A stretch of 64,000 nt of DNA. Source: Nitrospirota bacterium. Lineage in GTDB: Bacteria > Nitrospirota > UBA9217. Positions within the stretch are counted from its first letter, which is position 1; each line of letters starts with the position of its first letter. The notes below the pieces were generated by a model. It was not told the origin of the DNA. It worked only from the letters and a program-made list of their open reading frames with translations, and did not search any database. A program made the position numbers and the translations under genes. The DNA lies in assembly GCA_963796285.1 (NCBI GenBank), contig CAWCKW010000012.1, positions 224,001 to 288,000 on the forward strand, written 5' to 3'. Of this stretch, positions 34,579 to 54,466 are shown piece after piece.

Positions 34579-34647
34579 CTGGCAGATTTGCCGGATTGGG
34601 TGGAAGCGTTCCGTTGGAACGGCGGTCGAATTCAATCGGAACGTATA
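34579..34647. mobile_element. Possible IS21-type terminal remnant
   Basis: Three degenerate ~22-nt units (TGGCAGATTTGCCGGATTGGG / TGGAAGCGTTCCGTTGGAACGG / CGGTCGAATTCAATCGGAAC); no transposase. Confidence 0.3.
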
Positions 34648-34688
34648 TTAGCCAATCACCAGAACCTGCAAGCCGGGTTTTCGCTTTT

Positions 34689-38204
<3,516 letters not shown>

Positions 38205-38218
38205 AGTGGTAAGGAAAG

Positions 38219-38291
38219 CTCCAAATTCCAATGAGTTCAAAATTTAAATATTTGGATTTGGCCAGTATTTGGAATTTCGGATTTCGAATTT
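38219..38291. repeat. Heptamer-like inverted-repeat element between tRNA-Cys and dnaE
   Basis: TCCAAATTCCAA...ATTTGGATTTGG...ATTTGGAATTTCGGATTTCGAATTT. Confidence 0.55.
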
Positions 38292-38312
38292 ATTCCCGCA
38301 AGGCGGGAAAAC

Positions 38313-38388
38313 TGGAGGCGGCGATCGGATTTGAACCGATGAATGAAGGTTTTGCAGACCTCTGCCTTAGCCACTTGGCTACGCCGCC
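38313..38388 (-). tRNA. tRNA-Cys (GCA)
   Basis: GGCGGCGTAGCCAAGTGGCTAAGGCAGAGGTCTGCAAAACCTTCATTCATCGGTTCAAATCCGATCGCCGCCTCCA: 76 nt, cloverleaf, encoded CCA. Confidence 0.97.
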
Positions 38389-38647
38389 ACTTGTATGTAA
38401 TGAGATGAAAAAAGATGAAGGAGTGAGTCGGGAGTTACAAGATATTCGATGAACTATAACTCAAAACTCAGAACTTCAAGCGCTGTACTCTGAACAAGGG
38501 CTGTATGGCACGAACATGCGGGATATTAAGGTAAAACAGACATGAAGTCAAGTTCAAAAAAAGAGGTTATTTTTTTTCGTTCATATGTAGAACGAATGAA
38601 CCTTTGTGGTTGCACTTCTGACCTGTTACGTCGTACACATATCGGGA

Positions 38648-39058
38648 TCAATGCACGTTCTTATCGTTTATATGCTGGAGGGTGAGGGGAATGATGCCTG
38701 CCCGCTCCCCATCGATGAGCGTCTCGACCCAGTACGTACCGGGGACAGTGAACTGTGTGTTGAACCGGACCGATATGTCGCGGTGACGCTGGCTTTCGTT
38801 GAAAAGGCTTATTTTTGTTTCCGATTCCGAGAGGACCTGCTTCTGGTCAGGGGCGAGAAGCCTGATCCTGGACAGAAAATCTCCTTTGCCGCTGGTCCAT
38901 TCGTTCACGATGGCAAAACGATAGTGCAGGGCGGGAAAGGTATTCGCGAAAATGCTCTCGAACAGTCCCATGAAGCTGAATTTACCGCCCATCTCCTGAC
39001 GTACGTCGTCGCAAAGGAGTGTATAGTTTAATCTGGGCTTGATCTTCTTGTCCGCCAT
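38648..39058 (-). CDS. Conserved hypothetical protein (DUF6941-like)
   Basis: LLCDDVRQEMGGKFSFMGLF, FTVPGTYWVE. Confidence 0.65.
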   Translation of the reverse strand: MADKKIKPRLNYTLLCDDVRQEMGGKFSFMGLFESIFANTFPALHYRFAIVNEWTSGKGDFLSRIRLLAPDQKQVLSESETKISLFNESQRHRDISVRFNTQFTVPGTYWVETLIDGERAGIIPLTLQHINDKNVH

Positions 39059-39336
39059 GCGGACACCTTAACATACAATAACGAGGAACGTCAATCTGTT
39101 TTTCACCAGTGATTATCAGCAACCCTATGCGTGAAATATTACAGACCCTCCAATCAAAAGAAAGTGCGATTTTTTTGAATTGATAATCTGGGTGAGCGTT
39201 GTTTAAGGTAAATACCATTAAGTATGATAAATCATCATATTAGACTCGTTTTTTCGAGAGAGGTGATTATTATTTATTTTTGTTGTCAAAAGGTGGTTTT
39301 TATTGATATATTCATAACCGACGCGTTCAAGAAAGG

Positions 39337-41262
39337 GTGGCAGGAATCATGGTGGAACAAAAGCTTACGACAAGAAAAAAATACCTCATAAAGATTGCCG
39401 CGTTTTTGATCTTCCTGTTGCAACTCCTTTCGAAGTTTACTCCTGCTTCAGCGCAAACCGCTGAAGAAAAGAATTTCCTGCTGATGTATTTCAAGGAGGA
39501 GGAACTTGTGGTGGAATCACCCACCAGGAGCCCGAAGCCCGTTTCCCAGGTCGCGGAGAACGTCACGGTCGTTACGGCCGCGGACATTGAGCTCATGAAC
39601 GCGCATACGCTCGCGGACGTGCTGAATACCGTCACCGGGGTCCAGGTATTCATGAACGGAGGACCCGGCCAAGCAGCATATGGGTATATCCAGGGCTCCG
39701 AGCAGAGACACGTTGCGGTCTTCATCGATGGTGTTTCCTTAAACAATCTCGGATCAGAGAACGTGGAACTCGGGATGGTCCCGGTCCAGAACATCGAGAA
39801 GATCGAGATCATCAAAGGACCTGCATCCTCAGCGTGGGGCTCGGCCCTCGGGGGCGTGGTGAACATCATCACCAAGTCGGGAAGCATGGACAATCAGGGC
39901 GGGACGCTCTCCGCATCTTACGGGACAAAAAATACAGACGATTTCCGGGCCGAGGCACGGGGCAAACAGGACAAGGTTGGTTATTATATCACTGCCGGGA
40001 GGCTCCAGTCGGATGGCCTGACAACGCACATGGGCGTCGGCGAAAATAACGGCTATGCGAAACTGACTTATGATTTTACCGAGAAGACCAACATTCTTTT
40101 CACCTTTGGGTATGAGAAAACTTCCCGAGACACGGGGGAATACGCGCCATACGATTTGTCCTTTCACAATACCTGGGAAAGCATTTTTTCATCTCTTGCG
40201 ATCAATTCCGCGATCAGCAAGGACATGGAGCTGGATGTTTCCGTCCGGACGATTCGCCAGGACTATATTAATGATACTTCCACGCTGAGTTCCGGCCTCT
40301 TACTATCGCCGTCGGAGCACGATGCTGATAAGGGATATGGCGCGAGTGCAAAACTCACCTATAAAAACACGTTCCAGACGATCGTGCTCGGCGCGGACTA
40401 TGATGATCAGAAGCTGACATCAAACCTCATAGCGGAGGGCGAACAGGGGATGAAAAAATGGGCCGTGTTCCTGAACGATACCCTGCTATTCAACAAGCTC
40501 GCAATAACGCCCGGCCTCCGGTATGAAAAAACAGATACGAGCGGAGATTCGGCTAGCCCGAGCCTGGGCATGACCTACAGCCTTGCGAACAGCACCATTC
40601 TCAGGGCATACGCGGCAAAAGGCTTCAACATCCCGTCTTTGGGAGATAGATTTGGAGACATCGCGTCATTTTATGTCGCAAATCCCGATTTGAAGGCTGA
40701 GACGGTCTGGTCGTATCAGGCGGGTGTTGAGACCGCTGCCCTGAAATACCTCTGGCTAAAGATGTCGGCATTCAGAAACGAAATACGTGATGCCCTCACT
40801 ACTGAACCTACCTCAACCGCGGGCACCCAGTTTACCTATGTAAATAAAGGGAGGCAGAGGCGCCAGGGCTTCGAGGTCGAGGCGAAGACTGTCCCTGTTT
40901 ACCATTTTTCTCTTTCCGCTGGCGCGGAAATCATCGACGCGAAAGACCTTGACACAGGCGAGAGAGTAACGGACATTCCGACCCGTGTATATGACCTGGG
41001 CCTTCATTACAATGACGAACATACGTTCAAGGCCCTTCTCCAGGGCCGCTATATTGACTGGAATGATCAGACACAGCTTAAGGGGGAATATGGTTCCTTT
41101 GTGTTCGATCTTAGTATGATCAAAAAGATCCTGGAGCGCAAGGACGCCTCTTTGGAGGCCTTTGCGAATGTTCATAACATATTTAACGGAAAACAGTATA
41201 TATTATCGGTCTACAAAAACCCAGAACGGTGGTTCGAAGGGGGAATACGATATAAGTTTTAA
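39337..41262 (+). CDS. TonB-dependent receptor
   Basis: Plug motifs VTVVTAADIE and IEKIEIIKGPASSAWGSALGGVVNIIT; NPDLKAE; C-terminal GIRYKF. Confidence 0.93.
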   Translation: MAGIMVEQKLTTRKKYLIKIAAFLIFLLQLLSKFTPASAQTAEEKNFLLMYFKEEELVVESPTRSPKPVSQVAENVTVVTAADIELMNAHTLADVLNTVTGVQVFMNGGPGQAAYGYIQGSEQRHVAVFIDGVSLNNLGSENVELGMVPVQNIEKIEIIKGPASSAWGSALGGVVNIITKSGSMDNQGGTLSASYGTKNTDDFRAEARGKQDKVGYYITAGRLQSDGLTTHMGVGENNGYAKLTYDFTEKTNILFTFGYEKTSRDTGEYAPYDLSFHNTWESIFSSLAINSAISKDMELDVSVRTIRQDYINDTSTLSSGLLLSPSEHDADKGYGASAKLTYKNTFQTIVLGADYDDQKLTSNLIAEGEQGMKKWAVFLNDTLLFNKLAITPGLRYEKTDTSGDSASPSLGMTYSLANSTILRAYAAKGFNIPSLGDRFGDIASFYVANPDLKAETVWSYQAGVETAALKYLWLKMSAFRNEIRDALTTEPTSTAGTQFTYVNKGRQRRQGFEVEAKTVPVYHFSLSAGAEIIDAKDLDTGERVTDIPTRVYDLGLHYNDEHTFKALLQGRYIDWNDQTQLKGEYGSFVFDLSMIKKILERKDASLEAFANVHNIFNGKQYILSVYKNPERWFEGGIRYKF

Positions 41263-41413
41263 CCTGTAGACAAACACCCGCATCGGCGGACGCCCCTTTC
41301 ACTTTTTTAGATGTCATTCTTGAAATATTTTATCAGGAACTCGGTTTATTAAAACCATAGCCCCGATAGAAGCGCTCGGGGAAGATGAAAAGAGAGGAAA
41401 GGGGGTGAGGTGA

Positions 41414-41569
41414 ATGGCGGTCAAGAAAAAAGCAACTAAGAAAAAAGCTACCAAGAAGAAGGCGACGAAGAAGAAGGCAACAAAAAAGAAAGCTGCAAAG
41501 AAGAAAGTTACAAAAAAAGTAGCCCCAAAAGCTTTGTGCTGCAGCTTCGGGCCGACAAGGTTTATCTAA
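41414..41569 (+). CDS. 51-aa Lys-rich Cys-Cys peptide, putative RiPP precursor (geopeptide-like)
   Basis: MAVKKKATKKKATKKKATKKKATKKKAAKKKVTKKVAPKALCCSFGPTRFI*; GGGGGTGAGGTG RBS region; directly upstream of rSAM/SPASM; absent from the ORF track. Confidence 0.85.
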   Translation: MAVKKKATKKKATKKKATKKKATKKKAAKKKVTKKVAPKALCCSFGPTRFI

Positions 41570-41588
41570 CAGCAACTCCAACCTTAAA

Positions 41589-41614
41589 TGAGGGAGGGCA
41601 AGCGCCCTCCCTCA
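41589..41614 (+). terminator. Strong hairpin between precursor and maturase
   Basis: TGAGGGAGGGC-aagc-GCCCTCCCTCA: perfect 11-bp stem, then GAATTTT. Confidence 0.65.
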
Positions 41615-41634
41615 GAATTTTCATTGAGACGTTC

Positions 41635-42935
41635 ATGACCCTTTCCCGATACTGCAAAATATATCGACATCCCGAAGACAAGGGACTCAGAAAACTTTTT
41701 TCAACCAGTACCATGGCCGCGGTGGACGTTACGCCCGAAGTGCTTCGGGACATTAAAAAGGGTGCACTCTCTGCGAAAAGTGAAAAGAAAACCCTCAAAG
41801 AACTCGGGTTCCTCGTAAAGAATGCTGAGTCTGAGCAACGAGAGCTGCTCGGTTTCATCGATGATTTCAATGCACAGACTACGTCATTCAGCGCCGTCGT
41901 GGTTCTGAATCTTGACTGCAACCTCGCGTGCAGGTATTGCTTCGAAGGCAAAAGAAAGGGCAAATTCATAACATGTCCGCTGAAACGGCGGACGATTTCG
42001 TGGATTTTGTAAGGATCCCGTGATCTCAAGGGCAAGGATGAGATCAATGTCGTCTTTTACGGCGGCGAACCGCTCCTCAGCATGGACACGATTCTCCGCA
42101 TCTCCGAAGAAGATGACGCGTTGTTGCCGATAAAAAGAAGCTGAAATATTAGTTTTGCCTTAATAACCAACGGCACGCTTCTTACCAGGCGCACTGTGGA
42201 AGAAATTGTTGCCCCTCGGCCTTACGACCGCCGGAATGACCCTCGACGGTCCCCGTGAGGTGCACGACCTCTTCAGACCCTTCAAGACCGGCAAAGGCTC
42301 CTTCGATGTTATCGTAAAAAATATTCAGGACGTATGTTCTTTGATCGACGTGCAGGTAGGTGGAAATTATACCAAGGACCATTACTAGGGAATTTCCTCT
42401 GCTGCTCGATCATTTTGCCGAGAAAGGCATAAGTCCCGACAAGATTTCCTCAGTTGATTTCAATCCCGTAATCAATGAACACAATGAATTCGCTCCGCCC
42501 GATTTTCATGACGGTTGCATGTCGACAAATGAGCCGTGGCTGTCCGAGGCGACCGTTTTCCTGAGGGAAGAAACATTGAAACGAGGCTTTCACACGCGTG
42601 CACTCATGCCCTCGGTTTGCGCCATAGAGCGGCCCAACAGCATCATTGTCAATTACGACGGCACGTTGTATAAGTGCCCGGGGCTGCTCGGGAGAAAGGA
42701 CTTCTGTGTCGGCGATCTGACGAATGGAATCATTGATTACAGCGCGTCACACTCGCTCGACAACTGGAAAAATGAAAAATGCCTCTCATGCAGTTATCTG
42801 CCGCTCTGTTTCGGCGGATGCAGATATATGAAACTCGTGCGCGACGGTCATATGCAGGGCGTCGATTGCAAAAAACAATATCTCGACGTGATTCTCGAGG
42901 AACTTGTCCTGCAGGACATTACCTACGATCTTTAA
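41635..42935 (+). CDS. Radical SAM/SPASM peptide maturase (geopeptide-maturase-like), multiple frameshifts
   Basis: MTLSRYCKIY, CNLACRYC, FYGGEPLL, ITNGTLL, TLDGP; SPASM C..GTLYKC..CLSCSYLPLCFGGC..C. Confidence 0.88.
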
Positions 42936-43072
42936 GAAATCCCAAATATGAAGCGATATTTTCATCCCATAGTTCAAGAGCAAATGTCTTACGCAGGTTA
43001 AGAAGATTTAAATTTAGCTCCTGGGTATTATTTGTAAATCGGGCCTTGAGAGTTGGTTTATAATTATCCTCC

Positions 43073-43993
43073 GTGTATACCCTATTCCGACATATTCGAG
43101 CACGATCCCGAAATCTATTCCTTGCCACAGCCGCGTTCGCGGCGTTCGCAGCCAGCTGTCCTGTACCCGCTGAATCGTTCGAGTTAGTCGTCGTTAAAAA
43201 TGCCGATTTGAAACCGTATCAGGATGTGCTCCGTGGCATCAAGGATTCCTGCAGCTGCACTGTGAGGGAATTAAAACTTCCTGAAGATGAAGGTGTGGAG
43301 AAGATACTGAAAGCTTCCCCGAACGCGGTCCTCGCAATCGGGACGAGCGTGTTCAAAAAGGTCAAGGAGATTAAAGGCCTTCCGGTGATTTACACCATGG
43401 TGATGCCGTCGGAGACCGCCGGTCCGCTGCGCCCGAACATCTCCGGCGTGAGCATGGACAGTGACCCCGCAGAATCCATCGCCGCCATAATGGGGGTGTT
43501 TTCCAAGGCTAAGAGTATCGGGATCGTATATGATCCGCACTACACTGCGGCGCTCGTGGAAGAGGCGGTAAAAGCCGCAGCATCCGCGGGAATCGATCTG
43601 GTGGTAAAGCAGGCGCATGACCAGCGTGAAATACCTCGTCTTTTGGATGAGTTGCGCGGCAGGATCGATGTCCTCTGGATGCTGCCTGACCCGACCGTGA
43701 TCAATACCGCAATGGTCGATTATCTGCTCAATTTTTCCTTTCAGTACAATGTGCCGATCTTCTCCTTTTCCAATAAATATGTCGAGATGGGGGCCGTGGC
43801 GGCCCTGGTTGCGGACCCCTATAATATGGGGGTGCAGGCGGGCGAAATCGTCAACAGGCTGTCAGCCGGCCGGTCGAACGCAACGAGAGCATATGCGAGA
43901 ACATCTCACCTCACGATAAACACAAAGGTGGCAGCAAAGATGGGTCTTAAGATCAAGGACGAAATACTCAGGAGGGCGAATATCTTTGAGTAG
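43073..43993 (+). CDS. Periplasmic ABC-type substrate-binding protein with no transporter nearby
   Basis: Signal peptide; IGIVYDP, DVLWMLPDPTV, YVEMGA, LTINTKVAAKMG. Confidence 0.82.
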   Translation: MYTLFRHIRARSRNLFLATAAFAAFAASCPVPAESFELVVVKNADLKPYQDVLRGIKDSCSCTVRELKLPEDEGVEKILKASPNAVLAIGTSVFKKVKEIKGLPVIYTMVMPSETAGPLRPNISGVSMDSDPAESIAAIMGVFSKAKSIGIVYDPHYTAALVEEAVKAAASAGIDLVVKQAHDQREIPRLLDELRGRIDVLWMLPDPTVINTAMVDYLLNFSFQYNVPIFSFSNKYVEMGAVAALVADPYNMGVQAGEIVNRLSAGRSNATRAYARTSHLTINTKVAAKMGLKIKDEILRRANIFE

Positions 43994-45452
43994 ATTAAAA
44001 GAACGCTTCGGCCTCAAGGTGATTTTCTCTTTCGTAGTGGTCATCATCGTCGTGCTGTCGATATTCACCGTGTTCTCAGTTGTCCGTGAAGGAAATAAGG
44101 CGAAAGAAGACCTGAGGGAACAGGGGAACATGCTGGCAGTCCTTCTTTCGCGCAGCCTTATCGTGGGTGTTTTTGCGGAAAACGATAAATTACTGACGGA
44201 TGCGGCGGAGGGCATCATGGGCCTCAAGAATGTCGATTCGGTGACGATTTACAACGCAGATTTAAAAATGCTCAGCGCCGGCGGCAAGACTTCATCCGAA
44301 AAGAATTCGCTTACGGTCCGGAAAACCGGGGTACCTGACGTAAGACGCGTTCAATCGTTGACCATCGTGGAAACGCCGAATGCCTTTGAGTTTATGGAGC
44401 CCATCTTGATCAAATCCGGTTTGAACGAGGACGAGTCGCTGTATTTCGGCCACGGAAACGAGGACAAGACGGAAAAAGTGATAGGATATGTGAGAATCGT
44501 TTTGAGCAAGGACGCCTATCATAAAGAGATTTTGTCCGTAGTTCTCCGAAATGCCGCAATCATGTTGATCTTCATCTCTTCAAGCATCGTCATCATCTAT
44601 TTTGCGGTAAAAAAGGTCACCCGGCCGCTCGATACGTTGACCAGGAGCGTGAAGGCCCTCGAAAAGGGGATGCGCGTCGAACAGATGCCGGTTGAGACCG
44701 AGGATGAGATAGGAAACCTTGCTTCGGCCTTTAATGCCATGATCATCGCGCGAGGCCTGGCCGAGGAATCGCTGCGCTCCATGGTTTCGGAAATGTCGTT
44801 GATGGAATCGCGGATCGAGGAACGGGAACGACATCTTATCGCAGCGGATCTTCACGATTTTGTCGGGCAAAACCTCGCGGTGCTGTTGTTCAAGTTGGCT
44901 GCGTTGCGGAAAATGCTCTCTTCTCCGGAGGTTATCCATCAAGTGGAGGAACTACGTGAACTCATCGGGAAAACCATCCAGTATACGAGGTCGCTGACGG
45001 TTGAACTCAGCCCTCCCATTTTGTCCGAAATCGGATTTTTGGCCGCTGTAGAGTCTCTTGCCGAGGGAATCCAAAAAACGCACGGGATACGGATCAGTAT
45101 CTCGGATGACGGTCAACTCAAACAGGCCGATGACGAAACTCGATATCTCCTCTTCAGGATCGTCCGTGAACTCCTGATGAATATCGTAAAACACGCGCAG
45201 GCGAGTTCAGTAAAAATAAGTCTCGCCAGAAACGAAGACATCATGCATATTGCCGTTGAAGACAACGGCATCGGATTCGACACGGAAAAGGGTGCCGGAA
45301 GGAACAGTGGATTTGGACTGTTTACGATCCGCGAGCGGTTGAAACGATTGGGAGGATATTTCGCGGTTGATTCCAGGCCTGGTTTTGGAACGAAGGTGAT
45401 CCTGTCTGTTCCGCTCAAATCAAAACCGGGTGATCAGAAAGGGATAGTATGA
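43986..45452 (+). CDS. Membrane HAMP histidine kinase (HisKA_3 / NarX-like)
   Basis: Two TMs, HAMP DEIGNLASAFNAM, ERHLIAADLHDFVGQ, EDNGIGF, GFGLFTIRER. Confidence 0.92.
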   Translation: MSRLKERFGLKVIFSFVVVIIVVLSIFTVFSVVREGNKAKEDLREQGNMLAVLLSRSLIVGVFAENDKLLTDAAEGIMGLKNVDSVTIYNADLKMLSAGGKTSSEKNSLTVRKTGVPDVRRVQSLTIVETPNAFEFMEPILIKSGLNEDESLYFGHGNEDKTEKVIGYVRIVLSKDAYHKEILSVVLRNAAIMLIFISSSIVIIYFAVKKVTRPLDTLTRSVKALEKGMRVEQMPVETEDEIGNLASAFNAMIIARGLAEESLRSMVSEMSLMESRIEERERHLIAADLHDFVGQNLAVLLFKLAALRKMLSSPEVIHQVEELRELIGKTIQYTRSLTVELSPPILSEIGFLAAVESLAEGIQKTHGIRISISDDGQLKQADDETRYLLFRIVRELLMNIVKHAQASSVKISLARNEDIMHIAVEDNGIGFDTEKGAGRNSGFGLFTIRERLKRLGGYFAVDSRPGFGTKVILSVPLKSKPGDQKGIV

Positions 45453-46093
45453 GCATAAGAATTCTTCTTACCGATGATCACAAACTTCTGCGCGAGGGTC
45501 TGCATGCATTGATCGAAGAACAGCCGGACATGACCGTTATTGCGGAGGCAGAAGACGGAAGATCCACTGTGCAGCTTGCCGCAAAGCTGAAGCCCGATAT
45601 CATTGTGATGGACATCTCCATGCCTGGCATGAATGGAATGGAAGCCACCCGCCAAATCCTGTCCAAAAACCCCGGCATCAAGGTGCTTGCACTTTCAATG
45701 CATACTGACAGGCGGTTCATTGTAGAGATGCTCAGTGCGGGTGCCTCCGGTTATCTCTTGAAAGATTGCGCTTTTGAGGAATTGATCTGCGCCCTGCACG
45801 CCCTGGCCGATCAGAGAACGTATCTCAGCCCGAAGATCTGCGATCTGGTGGTCAAAGATTATGCTTGCCGCAACTCAAAATCGACGTTATCGTCCTCTGT
45901 TCTGTCGGCAAGAGAGCGTGAAGTGCTGCAGCTTCTGGCCGAGGGCAAATCCACCCGGAAAATTGCATCCATCCTCCATGTAGGCATGAAGACCGTTGAA
46001 ACCTACCGCCAACAAATCATGGAGAAGCTCGACATCCACACCATCGCAGAACTTACCAAGTTTGCCATCCGCGAAGGTCTCACCTCCCTGTAA
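45449..46093 (+). CDS. NarL/FixJ-family response regulator
   Basis: REC (DDH, MDISMP) plus LuxR HTH (LSAREREVLQLLAEG). Confidence 0.95.
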   Translation: MSIRILLTDDHKLLREGLHALIEEQPDMTVIAEAEDGRSTVQLAAKLKPDIIVMDISMPGMNGMEATRQILSKNPGIKVLALSMHTDRRFIVEMLSAGASGYLLKDCAFEELICALHALADQRTYLSPKICDLVVKDYACRNSKSTLSSSVLSAREREVLQLLAEGKSTRKIASILHVGMKTVETYRQQIMEKLDIHTIAELTKFAIREGLTSL

Positions 46094-46171
46094 AGAAGGG
46101 GCGTATCGGCATACGGTCCCTGCACCCCCGGCATCCATTATCCATCGGCTATCAGGAAAAACGAGGCTGAA

Positions 46172-46190
46172 AATCAGGGAATCCCTGATT
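46172..46190. promoter_or_regulatory. Palindromic operator candidate
   Basis: AATCAGGGA-A-TCCCTGATT, perfect 9-1-9; extra ATCAGG half-site at 46151. Confidence 0.55.
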
Positions 46191-46355
46191 GTTATTTTCC
46201 GTATTCTCTGCTATTAAACTTAAAAGGCAGTTGGCTGAAAATTTGCCCCATGAGAGATGATTACGCTCTAACGGGGTAAACGCAGATAACCGTCGATAAA
46301 GCATAGTGAATAGCTCATTTCAGAGAGTAATCCTTTTAAATGGAGCGAGGAGAAT

Positions 46356-47375
46356 ATGGCAGCGGAAAATGCGGATAATAAGGACATGATGCGCGGAGAC
46401 CCATGGCTGTTCACAACGCTTAGCGAAACTGTGGGCGAAGGTGTGACCCTGAGCGACAGGACAGGCCGGTTCGCTTTGTATAACTCGAATATGAGAAAAA
46501 TAACCGGATATACCGATGCAGAGACCGGCACGTTGAATGAGTATTTGGTGCTGTTGTTTCAAGATTCTGCCGGAAGTGAGAGAGCGATGTCGGAAGTCCA
46601 TGAAATATTTCACAGAGAATGCCGCGACAGAGAGACCGTGATCCGTGCTAAAGACGGAAATTCAAAAACCGTACTTGTATCCACATCGCCTGTGGAGTAT
46701 CAGGGCGTGCATTTTCTGTTACATTCCTACCGTGACATTACCTGCAGCAAGACTGTGGAGGAAAAGCTCCTTATGGCCGAAAAACGGTATCGCGTGCTTT
46801 GTGAACAATCATTTGACGCCCTTGTGATCATCGATCCGGTAACGTTTCTTCCGATCGATTTCAACGACAAGGCACCGGGCCTTTTTGGGTATACAAAAGA
46901 AGAGTTCACCCGCATAAAATTTGATACGTTAGAAGTTCGCGGAATTTTTAGAAATAAAAGATCTCTCAATAAGCCGAAGCCTGCTGAAGAAGGGGACAAT
47001 TTTGAAACCGAAGTTCGTACGAAAAACGCGGGATTAAAGAATGTCAAAGTAAGCATGCGGATCGTCGAACTATCGGGAAAACGTTCATTCCAGTGCATCT
47101 TTCATGAGATTAGTGATAGTAAGAGTGAAGTGATCAAGAAGGACAAGGGAACTGTTGAATTGCACAACACACGTGCGAAAACCGTGATGTTGAAAGGCAC
47201 GATTCCCATCTGCTATGTTTGTAGAAAAATTTATGACGAAAAGGGCTTCTGGCGCCCGATGGAATCATCCACCAGCGAACGCTCGGATGTTTTGTTCAGT
47301 CACGAATTATGCCCGGTTTGCGAGGAAAGATTTTACCCGAAACACTTAAGTAAGCGTACACGCGAAGAAACGTAA
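46356..47375 (+). CDS. PAS-PAS protein with C-terminal CxxC...CxxC module
   Basis: Two PAS domains; IPICYVCRKI...FSHELCPVC. Confidence 0.75.
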   Translation: MAAENADNKDMMRGDPWLFTTLSETVGEGVTLSDRTGRFALYNSNMRKITGYTDAETGTLNEYLVLLFQDSAGSERAMSEVHEIFHRECRDRETVIRAKDGNSKTVLVSTSPVEYQGVHFLLHSYRDITCSKTVEEKLLMAEKRYRVLCEQSFDALVIIDPVTFLPIDFNDKAPGLFGYTKEEFTRIKFDTLEVRGIFRNKRSLNKPKPAEEGDNFETEVRTKNAGLKNVKVSMRIVELSGKRSFQCIFHEISDSKSEVIKKDKGTVELHNTRAKTVMLKGTIPICYVCRKIYDEKGFWRPMESSTSERSDVLFSHELCPVCEERFYPKHLSKRTREET

Positions 47376-47459
47376 GCGAGAATCGACACGGTTGATCAAC
47401 AATGAAGCAATACAGTCGGAGTCACTCAACGCGTGATGAGACAACAAAAAGGTGATGGC

Positions 47460-47903
47460 ATGAGTATCAGAGTTCTTCTTGCTGATGATCACAAGCTGTT
47501 ACGGGAGGGGCTTCGCGCTTTGATCGAAGATCAGCCGCAAATGGAAGTGATCGCGGAGGCGGAAGACGGGCTGACTGCGCTGCAGCTTGTTGGTGAATTA
47601 TCGCCCGACGTCGTCGTCATGGACATTTCCATGCCTCGAATGAACGGCATGGAAGCCACCCGTCAAATCATTTCCACGGCCCCCGGCGTTAAAGTCCTTG
47701 CACTGTCAATGCATGACGATGATCGATTTGTGGAGGAGATGCGTAACGCGGGCGCATCCGGCTATTTGTTGAAAGATTGTGCTTTTGATGAATTGATTCA
47801 TGCCATTCATGCTGTGGTCGAACAGGGAACGTACTTAAGTCCGAAGATAAACGTTCCGAGAGATTGTCAACGAGCCGCCGTCGGCAGAGATATTGTGAGG
47901 TGA
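47460..47903 (+). CDS. Stand-alone receiver, paralog of 45449 lacking the HTH
   Basis: MSIRVLLADDHKLLREGL...YLSPKI, then stop. Confidence 0.85.
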   Translation: MSIRVLLADDHKLLREGLRALIEDQPQMEVIAEAEDGLTALQLVGELSPDVVVMDISMPRMNGMEATRQIISTAPGVKVLALSMHDDDRFVEEMRNAGASGYLLKDCAFDELIHAIHAVVEQGTYLSPKINVPRDCQRAAVGRDIVR

Positions 47904-47907
47904 ACAC

Positions 47908-49221
47908 ATGAAACACCCGTTGCATATACTTCACCTGGAAGAGAATGCCAAGGATGCCGAGCGTATTCGGAGAAACCTCGCAGAAGCGGAAATGGCGTGT
48001 GAGGTAACGAGGGTCGAGACGCTTAGGGATTTCGAAGCGGCCCTGGGACAGGGCGGGTTTGATCTCATCCTGACTAATTATTCCCCTCCTGCATTTGACG
48101 GACTTTCCGCGTTGAACATCGTAAAAGAGCGGCGACCGGAGATGCCCTTTATATTCGTAACGGGGTGGTTTGAAGAAGAAGCGGCCATTGAGGCCGTCAA
48201 ACAGGGGGCAACGGATTATGTGTATAAGCATCGGCTGTCCCCACGGCTCGTGTCCGCGGTTAAACGCGCGCTGGCGGAGGCGGATGAAAAAAAAGCGCGC
48301 AGAATTGCGGAAGAGGAGATGACGGAAACCGTAACGCGGTATCGGGCGCTATACGAAAAGGCCCTTCATTGCATATACGTCCATGATCTTGACGGAAACT
48401 TCCTGGACGCGAATGAAGCGGCTCTAAACCTACTGGGCTACACCAAGAACGAAGTCCTGTCCCTCAACATAATGTCCCTCATTGATAAGAACCAATTGCC
48501 CATGGTATTCAAGACGATCAATGAGATCAGGGAGCGAGGGTCGCAAAAATCCCCCAGACAGTTCAAGTTAAGAAAGAAAAACGGAGAAGATGTCTGGCTG
48601 GAAACGGATGCATGCCTTATATGCCGGAACGAAAAGCCTTACGCCATTCAGGGGATCGCCCTCGACATCACCGTACGGAAACGGTTGGAGTGGGAATTGC
48701 GTAAACTGTCGCTCATCGACAGCCTTACCGGGCTGTATAACCGGCGGGGTTTTTTCACGCATGCCGAACATCAAATGAAGATTGTCAATCGGACAAAAAA
48801 CAGGTTGACCCTGGTGTTTGCGGACGTGGATGACCTGAAGTCCATTAATGATACGCGGGGACATGGTGAGGGAGACAATGTCCTCGTGGAAACGGCAACA
48901 TTTCTGAAGACGGTATTTCGGGAATCGGACATTATCGCCCGCGTCGGCGGCGATGAATTCGTTGTTCTGGCGCTTGAGAACACCGGCACGGACGCGGCAT
49001 CGGGCTTGGTTCGCCTGACGGCAAATCTCGAAGCATTCAACTCCTCGCGGAACAGCGTCGAGCCGTTGTCGATCAGCGTGGGCTTCGCCTGCTATCAGCC
49101 AGATCAACCCTGTTCCATCGATGAGCTGCTCGCCCAGGCGGACAGGCTGATGTATAAGCAGAAGGGTGAAAAACGTCGGTACATCGTGGAGAACGGCGGA
49201 ACCGTTTACTCCGACTCATGA
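47908..49221 (+). CDS. Diguanylate cyclase REC-PAS-GGDEF
   Basis: DSLTGLYNRR, RESD I-site, GGDEF. Confidence 0.92.
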   Translation: MKHPLHILHLEENAKDAERIRRNLAEAEMACEVTRVETLRDFEAALGQGGFDLILTNYSPPAFDGLSALNIVKERRPEMPFIFVTGWFEEEAAIEAVKQGATDYVYKHRLSPRLVSAVKRALAEADEKKARRIAEEEMTETVTRYRALYEKALHCIYVHDLDGNFLDANEAALNLLGYTKNEVLSLNIMSLIDKNQLPMVFKTINEIRERGSQKSPRQFKLRKKNGEDVWLETDACLICRNEKPYAIQGIALDITVRKRLEWELRKLSLIDSLTGLYNRRGFFTHAEHQMKIVNRTKNRLTLVFADVDDLKSINDTRGHGEGDNVLVETATFLKTVFRESDIIARVGGDEFVVLALENTGTDAASGLVRLTANLEAFNSSRNSVEPLSISVGFACYQPDQPCSIDELLAQADRLMYKQKGEKRRYIVENGGTVYSDS

Positions 49222-49397
49222 GACTGGTGATTATCATGACCTCACAATTTACAGATTGCATGCCGACAGAACGAAACTGTCGGAGGATCGGGACAAGATG
49301 ACCGGCCGGCGGATGAGGTGGATTTGCCATAATATATTTGGCGTAACTGCGGATAATCGTCGTAAATAATAATATCGCCAGGGGGGGACAGAACATC

Positions 49398-50924
49398 ATG
49401 ACGTCGGGCCCGAGAATTCTCTGCGTTGATGATAGCAAAACGATCCGCAATATCCTTGAGGAGTTTCTTGTCTCGAATGGATATGAAGTCATCCTTTCGG
49501 AGAACGGCGAGCAAGCCCTGGAAATCATCAATGCACAGAAGATCGACCTTGTGCTCCTTGATGTGATACTGCCGAAATTGAACGGTTACGAGGTATGCAA
49601 GAGGATCAAGAACGACGAGCGGCAGCGGAACATCCCTGTCGCGATAGTGACCCGTCTGACGTCGAAGGAGGAACGCATCAGGGGCATTGAAGCAGGGGCG
49701 GAGGATTTCATCAACAAACCCTTCGATCAGACGGAAATTCTCTCCCGGATCAGAATGCTTCTCAAGATGAAGAATCTCCATGACAGCCTTGATTCTGCCT
49801 ATGACACAATAACGGCCCTGACCGGGTTCGGCAAAAAGATGGTACTGTCGTTCGACCCGCTGAATTACAATATCATTTCCTCGTTCGACGTAATCGTCAA
49901 TAATATCATGCTGAAAACGCACAATTCAGCGAACAAACCGAAAATGGTCATTGTCGGTTATATCGACGAAAACAACGCATGGCAATGGCACCTGTTTGAA
50001 TCTTTTTATAAGAGCATCAACAGGATTTGGATAAAACTCGATATCCATAACTGCTTGAATCTTTCCGGAAATTCCGATACAGGCCGGTTGAAGACATTTT
50101 ATAATACGGACGATCTTAATGATGTCGACATACGTTCCCTGGTTGCAAAAATGGAACAAATTTCCGTCATGGTGTCGAATGTGGTTTGTTTCGTGGAAAA
50201 TGCGTTCTGTGTATTCGCACTCAACTATGATAAACAAGTGTCCCGCTATGAAGCCGAGGTACTGAACAGCATCGCCATGCAGAGCCTGTTTATGAAATCC
50301 CTTGCTTCCCAGGTGAAGGAAACGGAGGATTCCTTTGATTATCTCGTTCGCGCCCTCGCACGGGCGTCTGAAACAAATGATGAGGGCACGGGGAACCATG
50401 TCATGCGGGTCGGCGAATACTGTGCGGTTATTGCAAAGGAACTTAACCTCTCCGATAAATTCATCAAGAATATCCGTATTCAGGCCACTTTACACGATGT
50501 GGGTAACCTCCACGTTCGCCCTGATATCCTCAAAAAGGCCGGGAAGCTGACACCGAAGGAATATGAGGAGATGAAGAACCATACCATTTCCGGGGCAACA
50601 ATACTGGGTGACCATGTGAGGTTGTCTCTGGCAAAAAAGGTGGTGCTGTCACACCACGAGCGTTGGGACGGGAGCGGGTACCCATATGGATTGAAAGGGG
50701 AACAGATACCGATCGAGGCAAGGATAATGAACATCGCGGACCAGTATGATGCCCTGCGGAATGCACGGGTGTACAAACCCAGTTTTGATCATTCGAGGAC
50801 ATATGCCATCCTCACCGAGGGCGACGGAAGAACCATGCCCAATCACTTCGACCCGCAGGTGCTCCACGCATTCAAGAATACGGCCTCTCAATTCGAAGAT
50901 ATTTATGAGAAAATGAGAGGGTAA
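49398..50924 (+). CDS. REC-HD-GYP phosphodiesterase
   Basis: LLDVILP, LHDVG, HHERWDGSGYP. Confidence 0.92.
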   Translation: MTSGPRILCVDDSKTIRNILEEFLVSNGYEVILSENGEQALEIINAQKIDLVLLDVILPKLNGYEVCKRIKNDERQRNIPVAIVTRLTSKEERIRGIEAGAEDFINKPFDQTEILSRIRMLLKMKNLHDSLDSAYDTITALTGFGKKMVLSFDPLNYNIISSFDVIVNNIMLKTHNSANKPKMVIVGYIDENNAWQWHLFESFYKSINRIWIKLDIHNCLNLSGNSDTGRLKTFYNTDDLNDVDIRSLVAKMEQISVMVSNVVCFVENAFCVFALNYDKQVSRYEAEVLNSIAMQSLFMKSLASQVKETEDSFDYLVRALARASETNDEGTGNHVMRVGEYCAVIAKELNLSDKFIKNIRIQATLHDVGNLHVRPDILKKAGKLTPKEYEEMKNHTISGATILGDHVRLSLAKKVVLSHHERWDGSGYPYGLKGEQIPIEARIMNIADQYDALRNARVYKPSFDHSRTYAILTEGDGRTMPNHFDPQVLHAFKNTASQFEDIYEKMRG

Positions 50925-51076: not shown

Positions 51077-52645
51077 ATGGCAATACCAGACCTCATAAAA
51101 CTGCTCGAAAGTCTCCACCCGCTCGAACACAAGGTACTCCTCTCGTTTCAGCAGGGAGGGACCTTGTCTGCACCTGAACTCCTGAAAGCATCGGGCCTCG
51201 ACGAGTCCCGCCTTGACATGGCCTCAGGCTGGCTCCAGCCCAAGGGGCTTGCTCGAGGTAAAGGACGAATCCATCACCTCGCTTGTTTCACTTACCGAAA
51301 CAGGAAGGGAATACCTGGAAAAAGGCACTCCCGAGATGAGGATCATCAGCGCCCTCCGTGAAGGAAAACAGTTTACGGTCAAAGACATCATCCAGACCTG
51401 GGGTATGGACCCGTCCGAAGTGAGTTCTGCTGTTGGAGCGCTCAAAGAGGCGAAGGTCGTGCAGATCGCCCAGGGCGGCATCCTCGCTCTTGATCGCTGG
51501 GGCCGACATCTCGGTCATATGAGTTTCTGCCGGCTCTTATCAAGACCGTGGCCGGGAAGGATCAGAGTGATCTGACCTCGTTCTCCGAAGCCCAGCAGGC
51601 TGCGATCAATGCAAACTTCCACAAGCGCGGAAAGTCCAAAGGTCTCTTCCGCATCAGTGAAAAGAAAAATCGCATATACACGCTTACCAGTGACGGGCAG
51701 GCATTGCTCCATCTGATCGAGGAACGCGGTGTTGTTGCCGAAGAGGCTTCAATGCTCACTCCTGAGATGCTGAAGCAGGGTACCTGGAAGAACAAAAAGT
51801 TCCGCGCTTACAATATCGCGCTCAACCCCCCGCGCCAGAGCATCGGCAGGAAGCATCCCTACAAAGAGTTCCTCGATTTCGTGAAATACAAGTTCGTCGG
51901 CATGGGGTTCGAGGAGATGCGCGGGCCGCTCGTGGAGAACGAGTTCTGGGACATGGACGCATTGTACATGCCGCAGTTCCATCCGGCACGGAACATTCAC
52001 GATGTATATTTCGTAAAAGAACCCGCGGTGTGCAGGGAGATCGAGTCCCCGTTTGGAAAGAACGTGGCCGCGGCACACAAGGACGGCGGCAAGACCGGGT
52101 CGACCGGCTGGCGTTATCCGTTTGATATCGAACGCGCAAAGCGGCTGATCCTCCGCAGCCAGGGGACGGCCGTATCGGCGCGCACGCTTGCATCGGGACC
52201 GAAGGTCCCGGGGAAATACTTTTCCATCGCGCGCTGTTTCCGGTATGACTCGGTTGATGCCACTCATGCGCCTGACTTCTACCAGGTGGAGGGCATTGTG
52301 CTCGGCGAGGACATCAATTTCAGGGCGCTGCTCGGGCTCCTGCAGCTCTTTGGGCAGGAGATCGCCAAGGCGGGGGAGTTCCAGTTCAGGCCGGCCTATT
52401 TCCCGTTCACCGAGCCTTCGGTGGAACTGCACGTGAAGCACCCCGAACTCGGCTGGATGGAACTCGGCGGGGCGGGCATCTTCAGACCCGAGGTCACCAA
52501 GCCGCTTGGCGTGGATGTACCGGTGATCGCCTGGGGCCTCGGCCTCGACCGCATGGCCATGGTGGCGCTCGGGATCAGGGATATCCGCGATCTGTTCTCG
52601 AGGGACCTGGATTTCATAAGAACGAAAAAAATACAATTGGGATGA
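51077..52645 (+). CDS. pheS: Phenylalanine--tRNA ligase alpha, long archaeal type, frameshifted
   Basis: PQFHPAR, FRYDSVDATH, YFPFTEPS, WGLGLDR; long N-terminal extension. Confidence 0.93.
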
Positions 52646-52761: not shown

Positions 52762-54466
52762 ATGCCTACAATCGACATAAAAAAACGCGACCTCGACACC
52801 CTCATCGGGAAAAAGCTCTCTATTGCCGTCCTTGAGAAGAAGCTGATGCTCGCCAAGGCTGAACTGAAGGAGTACAACGCGGAGACCGACGAACTCAAGG
52901 TCGAGCTGTCGGACAGCAACCGGCCGGACCTCTGGTCCGCAGAAGGTATTGCGCGCCAGATCCGCATCGCATTGTCCGGCAAGCCTGAAACCTATCCCTT
53001 TTTCAAGCATGGCGGAAAGGCCAACGAGGGAGATCAGGGTCGCGAAGGGAATGAGATCCGTGAGGCCGTTCATCGCGGCCTGCACCGCGAGCGGCATCCG
53101 TATGAACGACGACGTGCTGGCGCAGATGATCCAGAGCCAGGACAAACTCTCGGAGATCTTCGGCAGGAAGCGGACCACGGTATCGATCGGCATCTATGAG
53201 CTCGACCGCATCGCATTTCCGGTGGACTACCGGCTCGCGGAGCCGTCCTCTCTGTCGTTCATCCCCCTCGGCATGGATGAGAGGCTTACGCTCGCCGGTA
53301 TCCTCGAACGCCATCCCAAGGGCATTGCCTACGGTGGTATCGTCAAGCCCTTCCCGCAGTATCCGGTGCTGACAGACAGCATGGGCCGCGTTCTCTCATT
53401 TCCTCCGATCATCAACAGCAGGGAGATCGGCGAGGTGAAGCCGAATACAAAAAATGTTCTGATCGAGGTGACGGGCACAGACCTGCGGATGACGGTGCTC
53501 ACGCTCAATATCCTTGCAACGAGCTTTTACGACCGGGGCGCGGACATCGAGCCGGTGCTGGTGACCTATCCGTATGAAACCGGGACTCGGGAAGCGCGTT
53601 ACCTTCCCCTCTGACACGTCCGGAACGTTCACGGTCCCCCTTGCTAAATTCTCAGCCGGCCTCGGTGAGGATGTTTCGTCCGCGGACGTGAAAAAACGGC
53701 TCAGTTCCTACGGCCACATCGTGAGCGCCGGACGCGGAACGCTTTCCGTACATGTGCCGCCGTATCGCGACGACATCATGCACCCCATGGACCTGGTTGA
53801 AGACTATGCCATCAGTCAGGGGTTACGATTCCTTCGAGCCGGTCATGCCGCGGCAATCGACGGTCGGATCTATTTCCCGGATCGAATTATTGTCCGATAT
53901 TGTGCGCGGCCACATGGTCGGCTCGGGTTTTCAGGAGATCATGTCGAATATTCTTTGTTCGCGGGAAGAGCTTGAATACGCCATGCCGGAGGGAGAGAAA
54001 CTGGTCGAGGTGGACAACGTGATGTCGCTTGCCTACTCCGTACTCAGGAACCGGGTTATCCCGTCACTCATGAACGTTGAAGCGGCCAGCTCAAAGGCCT
54101 TCTATCCCGCACCGGACGTTCGAGGTTGGCGAAGTCGCTGTGTTCGATAAGAAGGAGAACATGGGCTCACGCACTGACCTGAACCTGGGTGCGATCATTT
54201 CTCACCCGGCCGCCAATTTCTCGGAAATGCATTCAACGCTCGATATTTTGCTGTACTACCTCGGACTGGAATATAAACTGGAGCCATCGGAACATCCGCT
54301 CTTCATACCGGGCCGCTGCGGACGGGTGGTCACAGATGGTATTGAATTGGGTCTTATCGGGGAAGTTCGGCCCGACGTCCTCGAACTCACACAGATCACC
54401 ATGCCTTGCGCGGCCTTCGAGATCAGCCTGAACAGGGTATTGAATGCTGTGCCTGCCGGCCGCTGA
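52762..54466 (+). CDS. pheT: Phenylalanine--tRNA ligase beta, short archaeal type, frameshifted
   Basis: MPTI, NRPDLWSAEGIAR, LSFPPIINS, PPYRDDIMHPMDLVED. Confidence 0.92.

Follow-up and report, generated by a model that had tools for sequence, protein, structure and literature searches.

A candidate geopeptide-type RiPP cassette joined to a proposed import-and-sense module in a Nitrospirota bacterium

The window discussed here is a stretch of 64,000 nucleotides from a Nitrospirota bacterium, and the part considered, positions 39337-50924, holds ten genes that all lie on the plus strand, at the coordinates given in an earlier note on this DNA (Table 1). That these ten co-oriented genes encode the domains then assigned to them is confirmed by Pfam and NCBIfam matches, and the reported lack of a protease or exporter holds as well, as the same scans find no ABC permease, ATPase, protease or exporter among the genes and no family matches for the locus proteins beyond those listed in this article (NCBIfam only in the case of the HD-GYP-type protein). 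The promoter candidate has 10 of 12 hexamer matches together with a TG extension and is the best match in the region; since the total of sigma-70-like matches there is no higher than in shuffles, it is a candidate only.

Table 1. Genes and candidate signals of the locus (positions in the window)
Feature	Position	Strand	Basis or remark
Sigma-70-like promoter candidate	39283..39312	+	upstream of receptor gene
TonB-dependent outer-membrane receptor, 641 aa	39337..41262	+	Plug 82.8 bits, barrel 133.6 bits
Precursor peptide, 51 aa, Lys-rich KKKAT repeats, CC and 8-residue tail	41414..41569	+	sequence, loci comparison
GC-rich hairpin and T-rich run	41589..41614	+	between peptide and maturase genes
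Radical SAM/SPASM maturase, TIGR04280, seven frame pieces	41635..42935	+	NCBIfam profile matches
Periplasmic solute-binding protein, PF04392	43073..43993	+	93.5 bits; signal/lipoprotein-like N-terminus
Sensor histidine kinase (TM, periplasmic domain, TM, HAMP, HisKA_3, HATPase)	43986..45452	+	domain matches
NarL/FixJ-type response regulator, REC and GerE HTH	45449..46093	+	domain matches
PAS protein	46356-47375	+	domain matches
REC-only protein	47433-47903	+	domain matches
REC-PAS-GGDEF protein	47908-49221	+	domain matches
REC and HD-GYP-type protein	49398-50924	+	HD..GYP motif seen in translation

Apart from the receptor gene, the genome has just one other gene with a Plug domain. The earlier note had considered B12 as a possible cargo; the receptor's top NCBIfam match is BtuB-like, but at 165.8 bits it falls short of the cut-off of 599.7, so that the receptor is no BtuB equivalog, and no riboswitch, cobalamin or other, was found upstream of its gene. 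The peptide gene that follows contains a 15-bp tandem repeat (6.1 copies, 41423-41514), and its product matches no NCBIfam or Pfam family, just as the CC peptides of related loci match no NCBIfam model. The hairpin after it, a candidate attenuator- or terminator-like element, has a stem of 11 pairs, 8 of them GC, and folds at -27.1 kcal/mol (z -4.64, with none of 200 shuffles folding equally well); a similar G/C-rich stretch after the peptide stop was seen, from the translation only, in all 11 relatives' loci inspected.

The maturase belongs to what NCBIfam calls the "geopeptide radical SAM maturase" (TIGR04280, a hypothetical equivalog with a cut-off of 400 bits), a family that is already catalogued as a database model only, no paper having been found for "geopeptide" or "TIGR04280" in the literature searched. 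Its pieces match profile positions 1-189, 180-248 and 248-427 at 160.2, 85.7 and 268.6 bits, respectively (scores of 107.4 and 271 bits are also given for pieces), and the SPASM model TIGR04085 at 53.9 bits, while intact homologues in relatives reach 512-582 bits, and the CxxxCxxC and SPASM motifs are invariant among the maturases. Among solved structures, 5wgg comes closest in sequence (E 2.2e-29), followed by the anaerobic sulfatase maturase and SkfB, and the weaker NCBIfam matches (CefB, SCIFF maturase, PapB and QhpD) are all Cys-directed peptide maturases.

Downstream, the kinase gene overlaps the binding-protein gene by 8 nt and the regulator gene overlaps the kinase gene by 4 nt, overlaps that would couple the three translationally, and the binding protein and kinase form a pair with no cognate ABC permease. 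Three solved members of the PF04392 family are given as binding Trp, Tyr or Phe (in Table 1 of PMC10443332). A complex predicted between binding-protein residues 30-306 and the kinase periplasmic domain (34-186) scored 0.50, the best of three controls scoring 0.21. In the calibration, 58 of 80 solved complexes attained this mark, as did 2 of 110 mismatched pairs, and among those that passed only 7 of the solved complexes, but both mismatched pairs, had scores of 0.60 or below; runs agreed in at least 88% of contacts with a partner pLDDT of at least 71, and this lends weak support to the idea that the binding protein may dock on the kinase. As for the output, loci closely allied to the window's (cluster 4, 20 loci) have a NarL-type regulator after the kinase, and an NtrC-type sigma-54 activator takes its place in other clades (cluster 5, 16 loci); a sigma-54 promoter upstream of the receptor or peptide genes was found in none of 14 loci with an NtrC-type regulator, so that autoregulation is unsupported.

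What lifts this collection of genes above coincidence is its recurrence. The comparison covers the 80 best of 501 related loci, and all synteny counts refer to these 80. Of these, 76 carry a receptor-like gene directly upstream of the maturase and 77 have a CC peptide at the position it takes in the window; among 77 peptides compared (76 loci and the window) the two cysteines are invariant, and in 73 the tail is 7-10 residues long. The binding protein is present in 63 of the 80, in two arrangements that span Nitrospirota and Geobacteraceae (45 downstream and co-oriented, 18 divergent and upstream of the receptor), and in 50 of these 63 its gene adjoins the N-terminal sensor part of the kinase (residues 1-264) while the output part varies; it is missing from only 5 full-flank loci, and at least 5 loci keep receptor, peptide and maturase with neither binding protein nor kinase. 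A survey of 61 relatives' genomes places binding-protein orthologues (46-58% identity) in exactly 11 besides the window's own, all of which possess the maturase, always adjacent, and the next matches are at most 31% identical; receptor orthologues (at least 41% identity) occur only in maturase-bearing genomes, plus one in G002, a member of the same genus, where the gene sits at a contig end and is cut by it. The receptor is dedicated to the peptide/maturase cassette, and the core unit of TonB receptor, CC peptide, maturase, PF04392 binding protein and HAMP sensor is strongly conserved, its arrangement recurring in the same order in dozens of other genomes, far in excess of chance.

The earlier note had drawn all ten genes into one peptide circuit ending in transcription and c-di-GMP, and its parts fared differently. 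The synteny it proposed to look for is there for the five-gene core, in Nitrospirota and in Geobacteraceae/Desulfobacterota and in two gene orders, and the c-di-GMP part falls away: the PAS, REC, GGDEF and HD-GYP genes lie outside the conserved unit, and no recurring cluster of them was seen in the 80 best of 501 loci. Since these genes are not conserved, a c-di-GMP read-out is at best particular to this organism. The top NCBIfam match of the last protein is a c-di-GMP phosphodiesterase response regulator, and the REC-only protein is a paralogue of the NarL regulator, 74% identical to its receiver over 130 aa.

The best reading of the core, drawn from gene content and order, is that its product would be a RiPP of the thioether type, which would return to the periplasm and be sensed there. 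The maturase would bind a Lys-rich or "RIxVLKKG"-type leader and install at least one thioether-type cross-link at the two cysteines; the modified peptide would leave the cell, and the receptor would bring it back in through the outer membrane; the binding protein would capture it in the periplasm and dock on the kinase periplasmic domain; and the NarL-type regulator would then alter transcription, the cell thereby sensing the external level or loaded state of its own peptide. The anatomy suggests that the cell recovers and senses a peptide of its own making, which may amount to the quorum-like signalling proposed in the earlier note, and it is with modest confidence that I describe the locus as a RiPP cassette of the geopeptide kind that forms part of a module for import and sensing. 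As the peptide lacks a signal sequence, its secretion is an assumption; a 6-TM MFS-like gene that is coupled to the maturase, and is a candidate for the exporter, is seen in 11 of the 80 best of 501 loci, the window locus not being among them, and it has no close homologue in genome G000.

The same gene anatomy fits a peptide that serves chiefly as a signal as well as one that serves chiefly as a carrier, for instance of a metal, with the cell monitoring its return. One version of the latter is a peptide metallophore, a secreted and modified CC peptide that would capture metal in sulfidic, anoxic habitats where it is scarce and return, metal-loaded, via the TonB receptor, with the binding protein and kinase reporting the loaded form; it shares the import-and-sense steps with the explanation preferred here, the peptide's primary role being the sole difference. 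Metal chelates are the classic cargo of TonB receptors, of which the window receptor is one of so few in its genome, the two adjacent cysteines never vary, and the hosts, judged from the names of sequence records, are anaerobic metal- and sulfur-cycling lineages. Methanobactin operons, as outlined in PMC3621798, combine comparable parts: a RiPP precursor, a TonB-dependent transporter, receptor-linked signalling and sometimes periplasmic binding proteins. However, domain scans and a riboswitch search reveal no metal-related gene or riboswitch in the locus, whose proteins match only the families already listed (NCBIfam only for the HD-GYP-type protein), nor do the domain scans find an inner-membrane importer that could carry a metal complex into the cytoplasm; and thioether links of the kind made by the nearest enzyme relatives would, if they use up the cysteines, leave none to serve as thiolate ligands. 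The metallophore is a possible but rather unlikely account.

A lower probability still attaches to the idea of an independent sensor, in which receptor, binding protein and kinase would respond to some outside ligand that has nothing to do with the peptide, as paralogous triads have to, and would merely regulate production of the peptide, whose own role would be a different one (antimicrobial, cofactor precursor or intracellular product, for instance). Receptor/binding-protein/sensor triads with neither peptide nor maturase were found in all eight loci examined (L148-L155) in the same phylum, where such triads are common, the same genus included. They resemble the window in having the same three-protein order and a related sensor N-terminal domain (20-25% identity), with proteins 21-31% identical to the window's and outputs that vary between kinase and GGDEF, and differ in having nothing of the cassette between receptor and binding protein; in 12 of 18 paralogue loci the sensor adjoins. 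No description of a receptor/PF04392/HAMP-sensor triad was found in the literature searched, and two NCBIfam models, NF053590 and NF053592 (weak matches), describe a similar module built on a YfiR-like protein. Because paralogous triads work without peptide or maturase, the window triad could sense something else too, and the absence of exporter and protease and the five loci that dispense with binding protein and kinase speak the same way. The earlier note had feared that the module would usually occur without peptide and maturase, and this is so for the distant paralogues but not for the orthologues: neither receptor nor binding-protein orthologues were found away from the maturase in 61 genomes, the association outlasts rearrangement into a divergent gene order, and the receptor is of all genes the one most tightly tied to peptide and maturase (76/80), always directly upstream, a linkage that makes an unrelated receptor ligand hard to explain.

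About as improbable is a dead cassette, in which the maturase is a true six-frameshift pseudogene, the peptide goes unmodified and the locus is a decaying remnant. The assembly does contain six frame changes, at which the earlier note no more than hints (near 41965, 42016, 42108, 42150, 42205 and 42387), each followed by stop codons, and there is no second maturase copy in the genome; the maturase was not found in any of the eight other genomes of the genus, and the relative G013 holds a second, fragmented copy of the whole cassette (L033). Against this, the essential genes pheS (single-copy) and pheT, together with a PRK07208-like gene, are likewise split within the same 64-kb window, which marks the assembly as prone to indel errors, and a public contig from run X1 that hardly differs from the window (of its 407 letters, 5 are different and 6 are gaps) omits two bases at 41965 and one at 42016, both of the lesions, out of six, that it covers, although this is a single contig at a depth of 3.8, where a difference may itself be an error. 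The peptide gene is identical in X1, the neighbouring cassette genes are all intact, relatives about 90% alike are free of all six maturase lesions, and amino-acid change is not in excess within the broken stretch, which is 74% identical to an intact homologue over residues 186-247 compared with 58.5% and 72.8% in the flanks. The absence of the maturase from the genus is partly an assembly effect, given that a contig of G002 breaks off at the receptor orthologue. In view of the split genes and the X1 contig the six frame changes are most likely assembly errors, and the cassette is therefore probably intact in the organism.

Finally, the notion that the TonB-dependent receptor instead exports the peptide, with binding protein and kinase sensing the periplasmic pool before release, can appeal to the absence of any other outer-membrane component from the locus, to the receptor being the gene most tightly coupled to the peptide and to a TonB-dependent transporter in Myxococcus that is reportedly needed for secretion of a protein, yet it is highly improbable, as export via such receptors is exceptional, the sequence offers nothing in its favour and the peptide-free paralogous triads are more simply explained by import.

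Returning to the favoured reading, a RiPP that is made, taken back up and sensed, each of its parts can be set beside something familiar. The window enzyme matches the whole length of the TIGR04280 model in three pieces and has a short peptide gene directly upstream, but the family name carries no link to a TonB receptor or to a binding-protein/kinase pair, both of which the window locus has. The structures 5wgg/5why, which I take to be the SCIFF maturase CteB (the database title is "Radical SAM domain protein"), represent thioether-forming SPASM maturases with an N-terminal peptide-recognition domain and, although only distantly related, share with the window maturase some 85 N-terminal residues before CxxxCxxC, a C-terminal SPASM domain and Cys-bearing peptide substrates; the presumed substrate here differs in that its cysteines are just two, side by side, and its tail is 7-10 residues long. 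LuxP-LuxQ and TorT-TorS are binding-protein-dependent sensor kinases, and the locus is similar to them in that the gene for a periplasmic binding protein that lacks a transporter lies beside one for a membrane kinase, with apparent translational coupling and presumed docking, whereas its binding protein comes from another family (PF04392), an outer-membrane import step is genetically attached, and the gene for the presumed ligand lies among the others. A further likeness may be drawn to methanobactin, where, according to the account in PMC3621798, a ribosomal peptide product also lies beside a dedicated TonB-dependent transporter, uptake is coupled to transcription signalling, and some operons include a periplasmic binding protein, as the window locus does. 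The operons described there possess a MATE exporter, in contrast to the window locus, and the maturation enzyme of the latter, a radical SAM/SPASM protein, is unlike the methanobactin enzymes. Furthermore, methanobactin signalling is FecIRA-like in that account, with an N-terminal receptor extension and a sigma/anti-sigma pair (PMC3621798), whereas the window receptor has no such extension, its Plug domain beginning at residue 69, and the cassette would signal instead through a binding protein, a HAMP histidine kinase and a NarL- or NtrC-type regulator.

Five of the ten co-oriented genes at this locus, those encoding a TonB receptor, a small peptide, a radical SAM/SPASM maturase, a PF04392 binding protein and a sensor kinase, form a meaningful neighbourhood, and the synteny comparison that the earlier note had proposed ends in favour of the input half of its circuit. 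The ten genes themselves, within the window (G000:C12:224001-288000, from a genome of 3.58 Mb in 13 contigs), carry the domains originally given to them: Pfam and NCBIfam scans place a TonB receptor (Plug and barrel), a 51-aa peptide, a radical SAM/SPASM enzyme and the PF04392 binding protein in that order, followed by a HAMP/HisKA_3/HATPase kinase, a NarL-type regulator, a PAS protein, and REC-only, REC-PAS-GGDEF and REC-HD-GYP proteins, with nine of the ten compared with both collections and the HD-GYP protein with NCBIfam alone. The binding-protein and kinase genes overlap by 8 nt and the kinase and regulator genes by 4 nt. The locus was also said to contain no protease or exporter, which holds, and an ABC permease and ATPase are likewise absent from the ten genes.

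Coordinates of the features discussed, as positions in the window
Feature	Position	Strand	Remarks
PRK07208-like FAD oxidoreductase	3477-5617	-	Three consecutive ORFs, profile positions 4-211, 204-369 and 366-453
ORFs lying over dnaE	34542-36083 and 36429-37772	+	Long; no family matched; probably antisense artefacts
DNA polymerase III alpha (dnaE)	34692-38240	-	1183 aa, 1563 bits
tRNA gene	38316-38388	-	66.5 bits; between dnaE and the receptor gene
Ten-gene locus	39337-50924	+	
TonB receptor	39337-41262	+	
CC peptide	41414-41569	+	51 aa, directly upstream of the maturase
Hairpin with T-rich tail	41589-41614		3' of the peptide gene; -27.1 kcal/mol, z -4.64
Maturase	41635-42935	+	
Binding protein	43073-43993	+	
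Kinase	43986-45452	+	
NarL-type regulator	45449-46093	+	
PAS, REC-only, REC-PAS-GGDEF and REC-HD-GYP genes	46356-50924	+	
PAS protein	46356-47375	+	Double PAS; C-terminal Cys-rich stretch with two CxxC pairs
REC-only protein	47433-47903	+	
pheS (alpha) and pheT (beta), phenylalanine-tRNA ligase	51077-52642 and 53574-54463	+	Each over several frames

Across collections with one genome for each species, a broader scan returned 501 related loci, and the best 80 of these were examined, which by record label comprise 67 of Nitrospirota type, 8 Geobacteraceae/Geobacter, 1 Desulfobacterium sp. N47 and 4 others. Among these 80, the receptor stands immediately upstream of the maturase in 76, and a binding protein is present in 63, either downstream in the same orientation, like that of the window (45), or divergently upstream of the receptor (18), with the N-terminal sensor part of the kinase adjoining it in 50 of the 63; contig ends limit most of the 17 loci in which no binding protein is seen, and five (L090, L113, L127, L133 and L141) lack it despite full flanks. 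The same pattern is seen in the 61 relatives' genomes, where the maturase scores above its cut-off in 11 and binding-protein orthologues (46-58% identity, the next best being at most 31%) are also found in 11, all of which have a maturase match (10 above cut-off) that is always adjacent. Receptor orthologues of at least 41% identity track the maturase likewise, with one extra in the same-genus genome G002 that is cut by a contig end. Since the association survives rearrangement, it is good evidence for a functional unit. The output varies among clades, as the clade of the window has a NarL-type regulator and others have a sigma-54 activator of NtrC type, so the conserved part is the input side.

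The c-di-GMP genes, which the earlier note had counted as part of the system, fare less well, as the PAS, REC-only, GGDEF and HD-GYP genes are not recurrent among the best 80 of the 501 loci. The REC-only protein shares 74% identity with the NarL receiver over 130 aa and has no DNA-binding domain, and it may serve as a second phosphoryl acceptor of the cassette kinase; given this paralogy and the lack of recurrence, a c-di-GMP branch in this organism is conceivable, though not conserved. The C-terminal CxxC part of the PAS protein looks like a small zinc-ribbon-type module and gave no family match. Other neighbours that recur (ATP synthase subunits, an HflX-like GTPase, a lytic transglycosylase, an amidohydrolase and DUF3108) were set aside as within-clade housekeeping synteny. 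In 11 of the 80 loci, a gene for an MFS-like protein of ~190 aa with 6 TM segments overlaps the maturase stop (e.g., at 9299-9883 of locus L103), mostly in loci with the binding protein and kinase upstream in divergent orientation. This protein is a candidate for an exporter of the inner membrane, and the genome studied here, G000, has no close homologue of it.

A CC peptide lies between receptor and maturase in 77 of the best 80 of the 501 loci (74 recognized by script and 3 by eye), the exceptions being L123 with a single Cys, L076 without upstream sequence, and L086 with none. In L123, a Geobacter-labelled locus, the peptide at ~5330-5735 has the usual leader and one Cys in place of CC. The majority of CC peptides are ~32 aa long with a fixed leader of the type M-x-K-R-I-V-V-L-K-K-G-V, 21 residues ahead of CC; in a minority, Lys/Ala/Thr-rich repeats replace this leader, as in the window, where six 15-bp repeats encode KKKAT-like units followed by the invariant CC and an 8-residue tail. 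Among 77 peptides (those of 76 loci and that of the window), 73 have a tail of 7-10 residues; the tails are aromatic-rich and often read x-G-A/G-F-x-P-L/F/Y-R-x. No known family was found for the peptide, as neither the window peptide nor four relatives' peptides matched NCBIfam or Pfam at E up to 10, where low-complexity chance matches alone appeared. Operons that produce a large amount of precursor and only a little enzyme typically have a hairpin like the one behind the peptide gene.

The maturase matches the NCBIfam model TIGR04280, "geopeptide radical SAM maturase", along its whole length but in pieces: profile positions 1-189 are matched with 160.2 bits, 180-248 with 85.7 bits and 248-427 with 268.6 bits. 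None of these pieces alone reaches the cut-off of 400 bits, although together they tile the entire model; intact orthologues score 512-582 bits. The CxxxCxxC motif lies in the first piece and is invariant in an alignment of maturase homologues (A1), where the motif and the SPASM cysteines are common to ten intact homologues; the SPASM model TIGR04085 gives 53.9 bits (cut-off 27), and Radical_SAM (PF04055) matches the intact homologues. By sequence, the nearest solved structure is 5wgg (E 2.2e-29), followed by an anaerobic sulfatase maturase and SkfB, and the weaker NCBIfam matches are further Cys-directed peptide maturases. Judging from such relatives, the enzyme would install a Cys sulfur-to-carbon cross-link of the sacti- or ranthipeptide-like kind. 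No second maturase copy or paralogous cassette was found in G000. A relative's genome does hold a second whole cassette (L033, G013:C6:163400-183300), in which the genes for receptor, maturase, binding protein and kinase are all broken up over several frames, and this is a duplicate in decay or else a further stretch rich in errors.

The pieces arise from six switches of the reading frame between ~41965 and ~42387, and these are probably assembly errors, because other genes nearby are split too, public contigs are free of the lesions, and protein conservation is not reduced in the broken stretch, which is conserved as well as the remainder of the maturase. At least three other genes in the same 64-kb window are split, namely pheS, pheT and that for the PRK07208-like oxidoreductase; pheS and pheT are essential and pheS is single-copy in G000, which points to indel assembly errors rather than gene loss, and the oxidoreductase gene likely carries another pair of assembly frameshifts. 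A contig from public run X1, near-identical to the window, spans 41676-42088 at a depth of only 3.8, low enough for a difference to be an error, and lacks 2 bases at 41965 and a single base at 42016, which are precisely both lesions that it spans, with the other four of the six lying outside its cover. Contigs from runs X2-X4, of relatives ~90% alike, have 2 bases fewer near 41968-41970, 1 fewer at 42387, and 209 letters in place of 214 (42013-42228), altogether removing all six lesions. The screened runs contained at most 0.34 of the sampled words, and the contigs are uninformative in the parts they leave uncovered, such as 42093-42214 in all four runs.

Turning to the receptor, it has the layout of a Plug (PF07715, 82.8 bits) with a beta-barrel (PF00593, 133.6 bits) and is one of only two in G000, where TonB_C proteins are encoded at other sites. 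It is not a BtuB-type vitamin B12 receptor, as its scores of 165.8 and 145 bits fall far short of the respective cut-offs of 599.7 and 836, and an Rfam search of 38200-43100 returned no cobalamin riboswitch, the one match being the tRNA. A sigma-54 autoregulation link gains no support, as none of the 14 loci with an NtrC-type regulator has sigma-54 promoters before the receptor or the peptide gene. L074, L078 and L089 are the only loci where perfect or near-perfect matches to the sigma-54 consensus TGGCAC-N5-TTGC precede the peptide gene, 190-250 bp before the maturase start.

The downstream pair, a transporter-less binding protein and a kinase with a periplasmic domain, has the features of a binding-protein-dependent two-component sensor. 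The predicted complex of the binding protein with the periplasmic domain scored 0.50 against 0.21 for the best of three controls, a mark that 58 of 80 solved complexes attain, as do 2 of 110 mismatched pairs, and this lends weak support to their contact. Of those that attain it, only 7 of the 80 solved complexes lie at or below 0.60, together with both passing mismatches. At least 88% of contacts are common to the prediction runs, with partner pLDDT of at least 71; the score expresses model confidence and is no measurement. Solved PF04392 proteins, as listed in Table 1 of PMC10443332, bind Trp, Tyr and Phe, and the correspondence with the aromatic-rich peptide tails is only suggestive.

Furthermore, at 12 of 18 loci of more remote PF04392 paralogues (23-32% identity) from the phylum, a related sensor N-terminal domain comes after the paralogue. 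In eight loci of relatives (L148-L155, from G032, G028, G041, G014, G058, G003, G016 and G019), a TonB receptor is directly followed by such a paralogue in every case, peptide and maturase are absent from all eight with longer flanks, and a HAMP sensor with GGDEF or kinase output follows the binding protein in six; one locus is from the same genus. The earlier note had allowed that its idea would fall if the receptor/binding-protein/kinase module usually occurred without peptide and maturase, and it does so for these distant paralogues and not beyond them. A generic triad of receptor, binding protein and sensor thus exists, of which the geopeptide loci appear to be one clade, with peptide and maturase inserted. 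I read this as support for a device that imports, binds and signals, whose ligand in the geopeptide clade would be made by neighbouring genes; the peptide-free module seems general, and no description of it was found in the literature searched.

The best reading of the locus, to which I give slightly better than even chances, is that a cross-linked CC peptide leaves the cell, is re-imported and is presented to the kinase. The maturase, to go by its enzyme relatives, would cross-link the CC motif, the product would then leave the cell in a putative step for which exporter and leader removal are the missing pieces, the dedicated receptor would re-import it, and the binding protein would present it, as a signal or a carrier, to the kinase. 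A more far-reaching proposal, rather less likely than not, is that the radical-SAM-modified CC peptide is a self-made extracellular signal, imported by the TonB receptor and read in the periplasm by the binding-protein/histidine-kinase pair without ever entering the cytoplasm, a route that would be widespread among diderms. Peptide signalling is textbook in Gram-positive bacteria and rare in diderms, whose outer membrane excludes peptides; a peptide of this kind would be too large for porins and hence need active import by a dedicated receptor, and the paralogous triads that lack a peptide would represent the same "import-to-sense" device adapted to foreign ligands. The earlier suggestion of quorum-like peptide signalling would call for density-dependent autoinduction together with an exporter or a processing protease dedicated to the peptide, and the window locus has neither exporter nor protease.

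If re-import and presentation of the modified peptide to the kinase prove true, the system would show how diderms use large peptide ligands, as signals or carriers, give a function to a catalogued, unstudied RiPP family with 501 related loci in one-genome-per-species collections, and point to a general "import-to-sense" triad found also without peptide. Because homologues carry the label Geobacteraceae, a family that includes cultured members, it can be tested directly. The peptide/maturase pair is already catalogued by name in NCBIfam; what appears new, with no description found in the searchable literature, is the joining of a radical-SAM CC peptide and a dedicated TonB receptor to a PF04392/HAMP-kinase reader. 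Searches that left supplementary files and subscription journals outside their reach found nothing on "geopeptide" or TIGR04280, nothing on a receptor/binding-protein/sensor module under PF04392 or ABC_sub_bind, and nothing relevant under combinations of SPASM, TonB, RiPP, kinase and diguanylate cyclase.

Among known systems, the reader part of the locus resembles LuxPQ and TorTS, which are binding-protein-dependent kinases. The genes of a methanobactin-type operon (MbnB/MbnC-type maturation genes with a MATE exporter beside the precursor) were not found, as in the Pfam and NCBIfam scans the locus proteins matched no family beyond those named here. In its logic, methanobactin is nevertheless the closest described system, being a RiPP with its own TonB-dependent transporter and receptor-linked signalling, whose operons in some cases include periplasmic binding proteins (PMC3621798); it differs from the geopeptide locus in its enzymes, its exporter and its signalling route.
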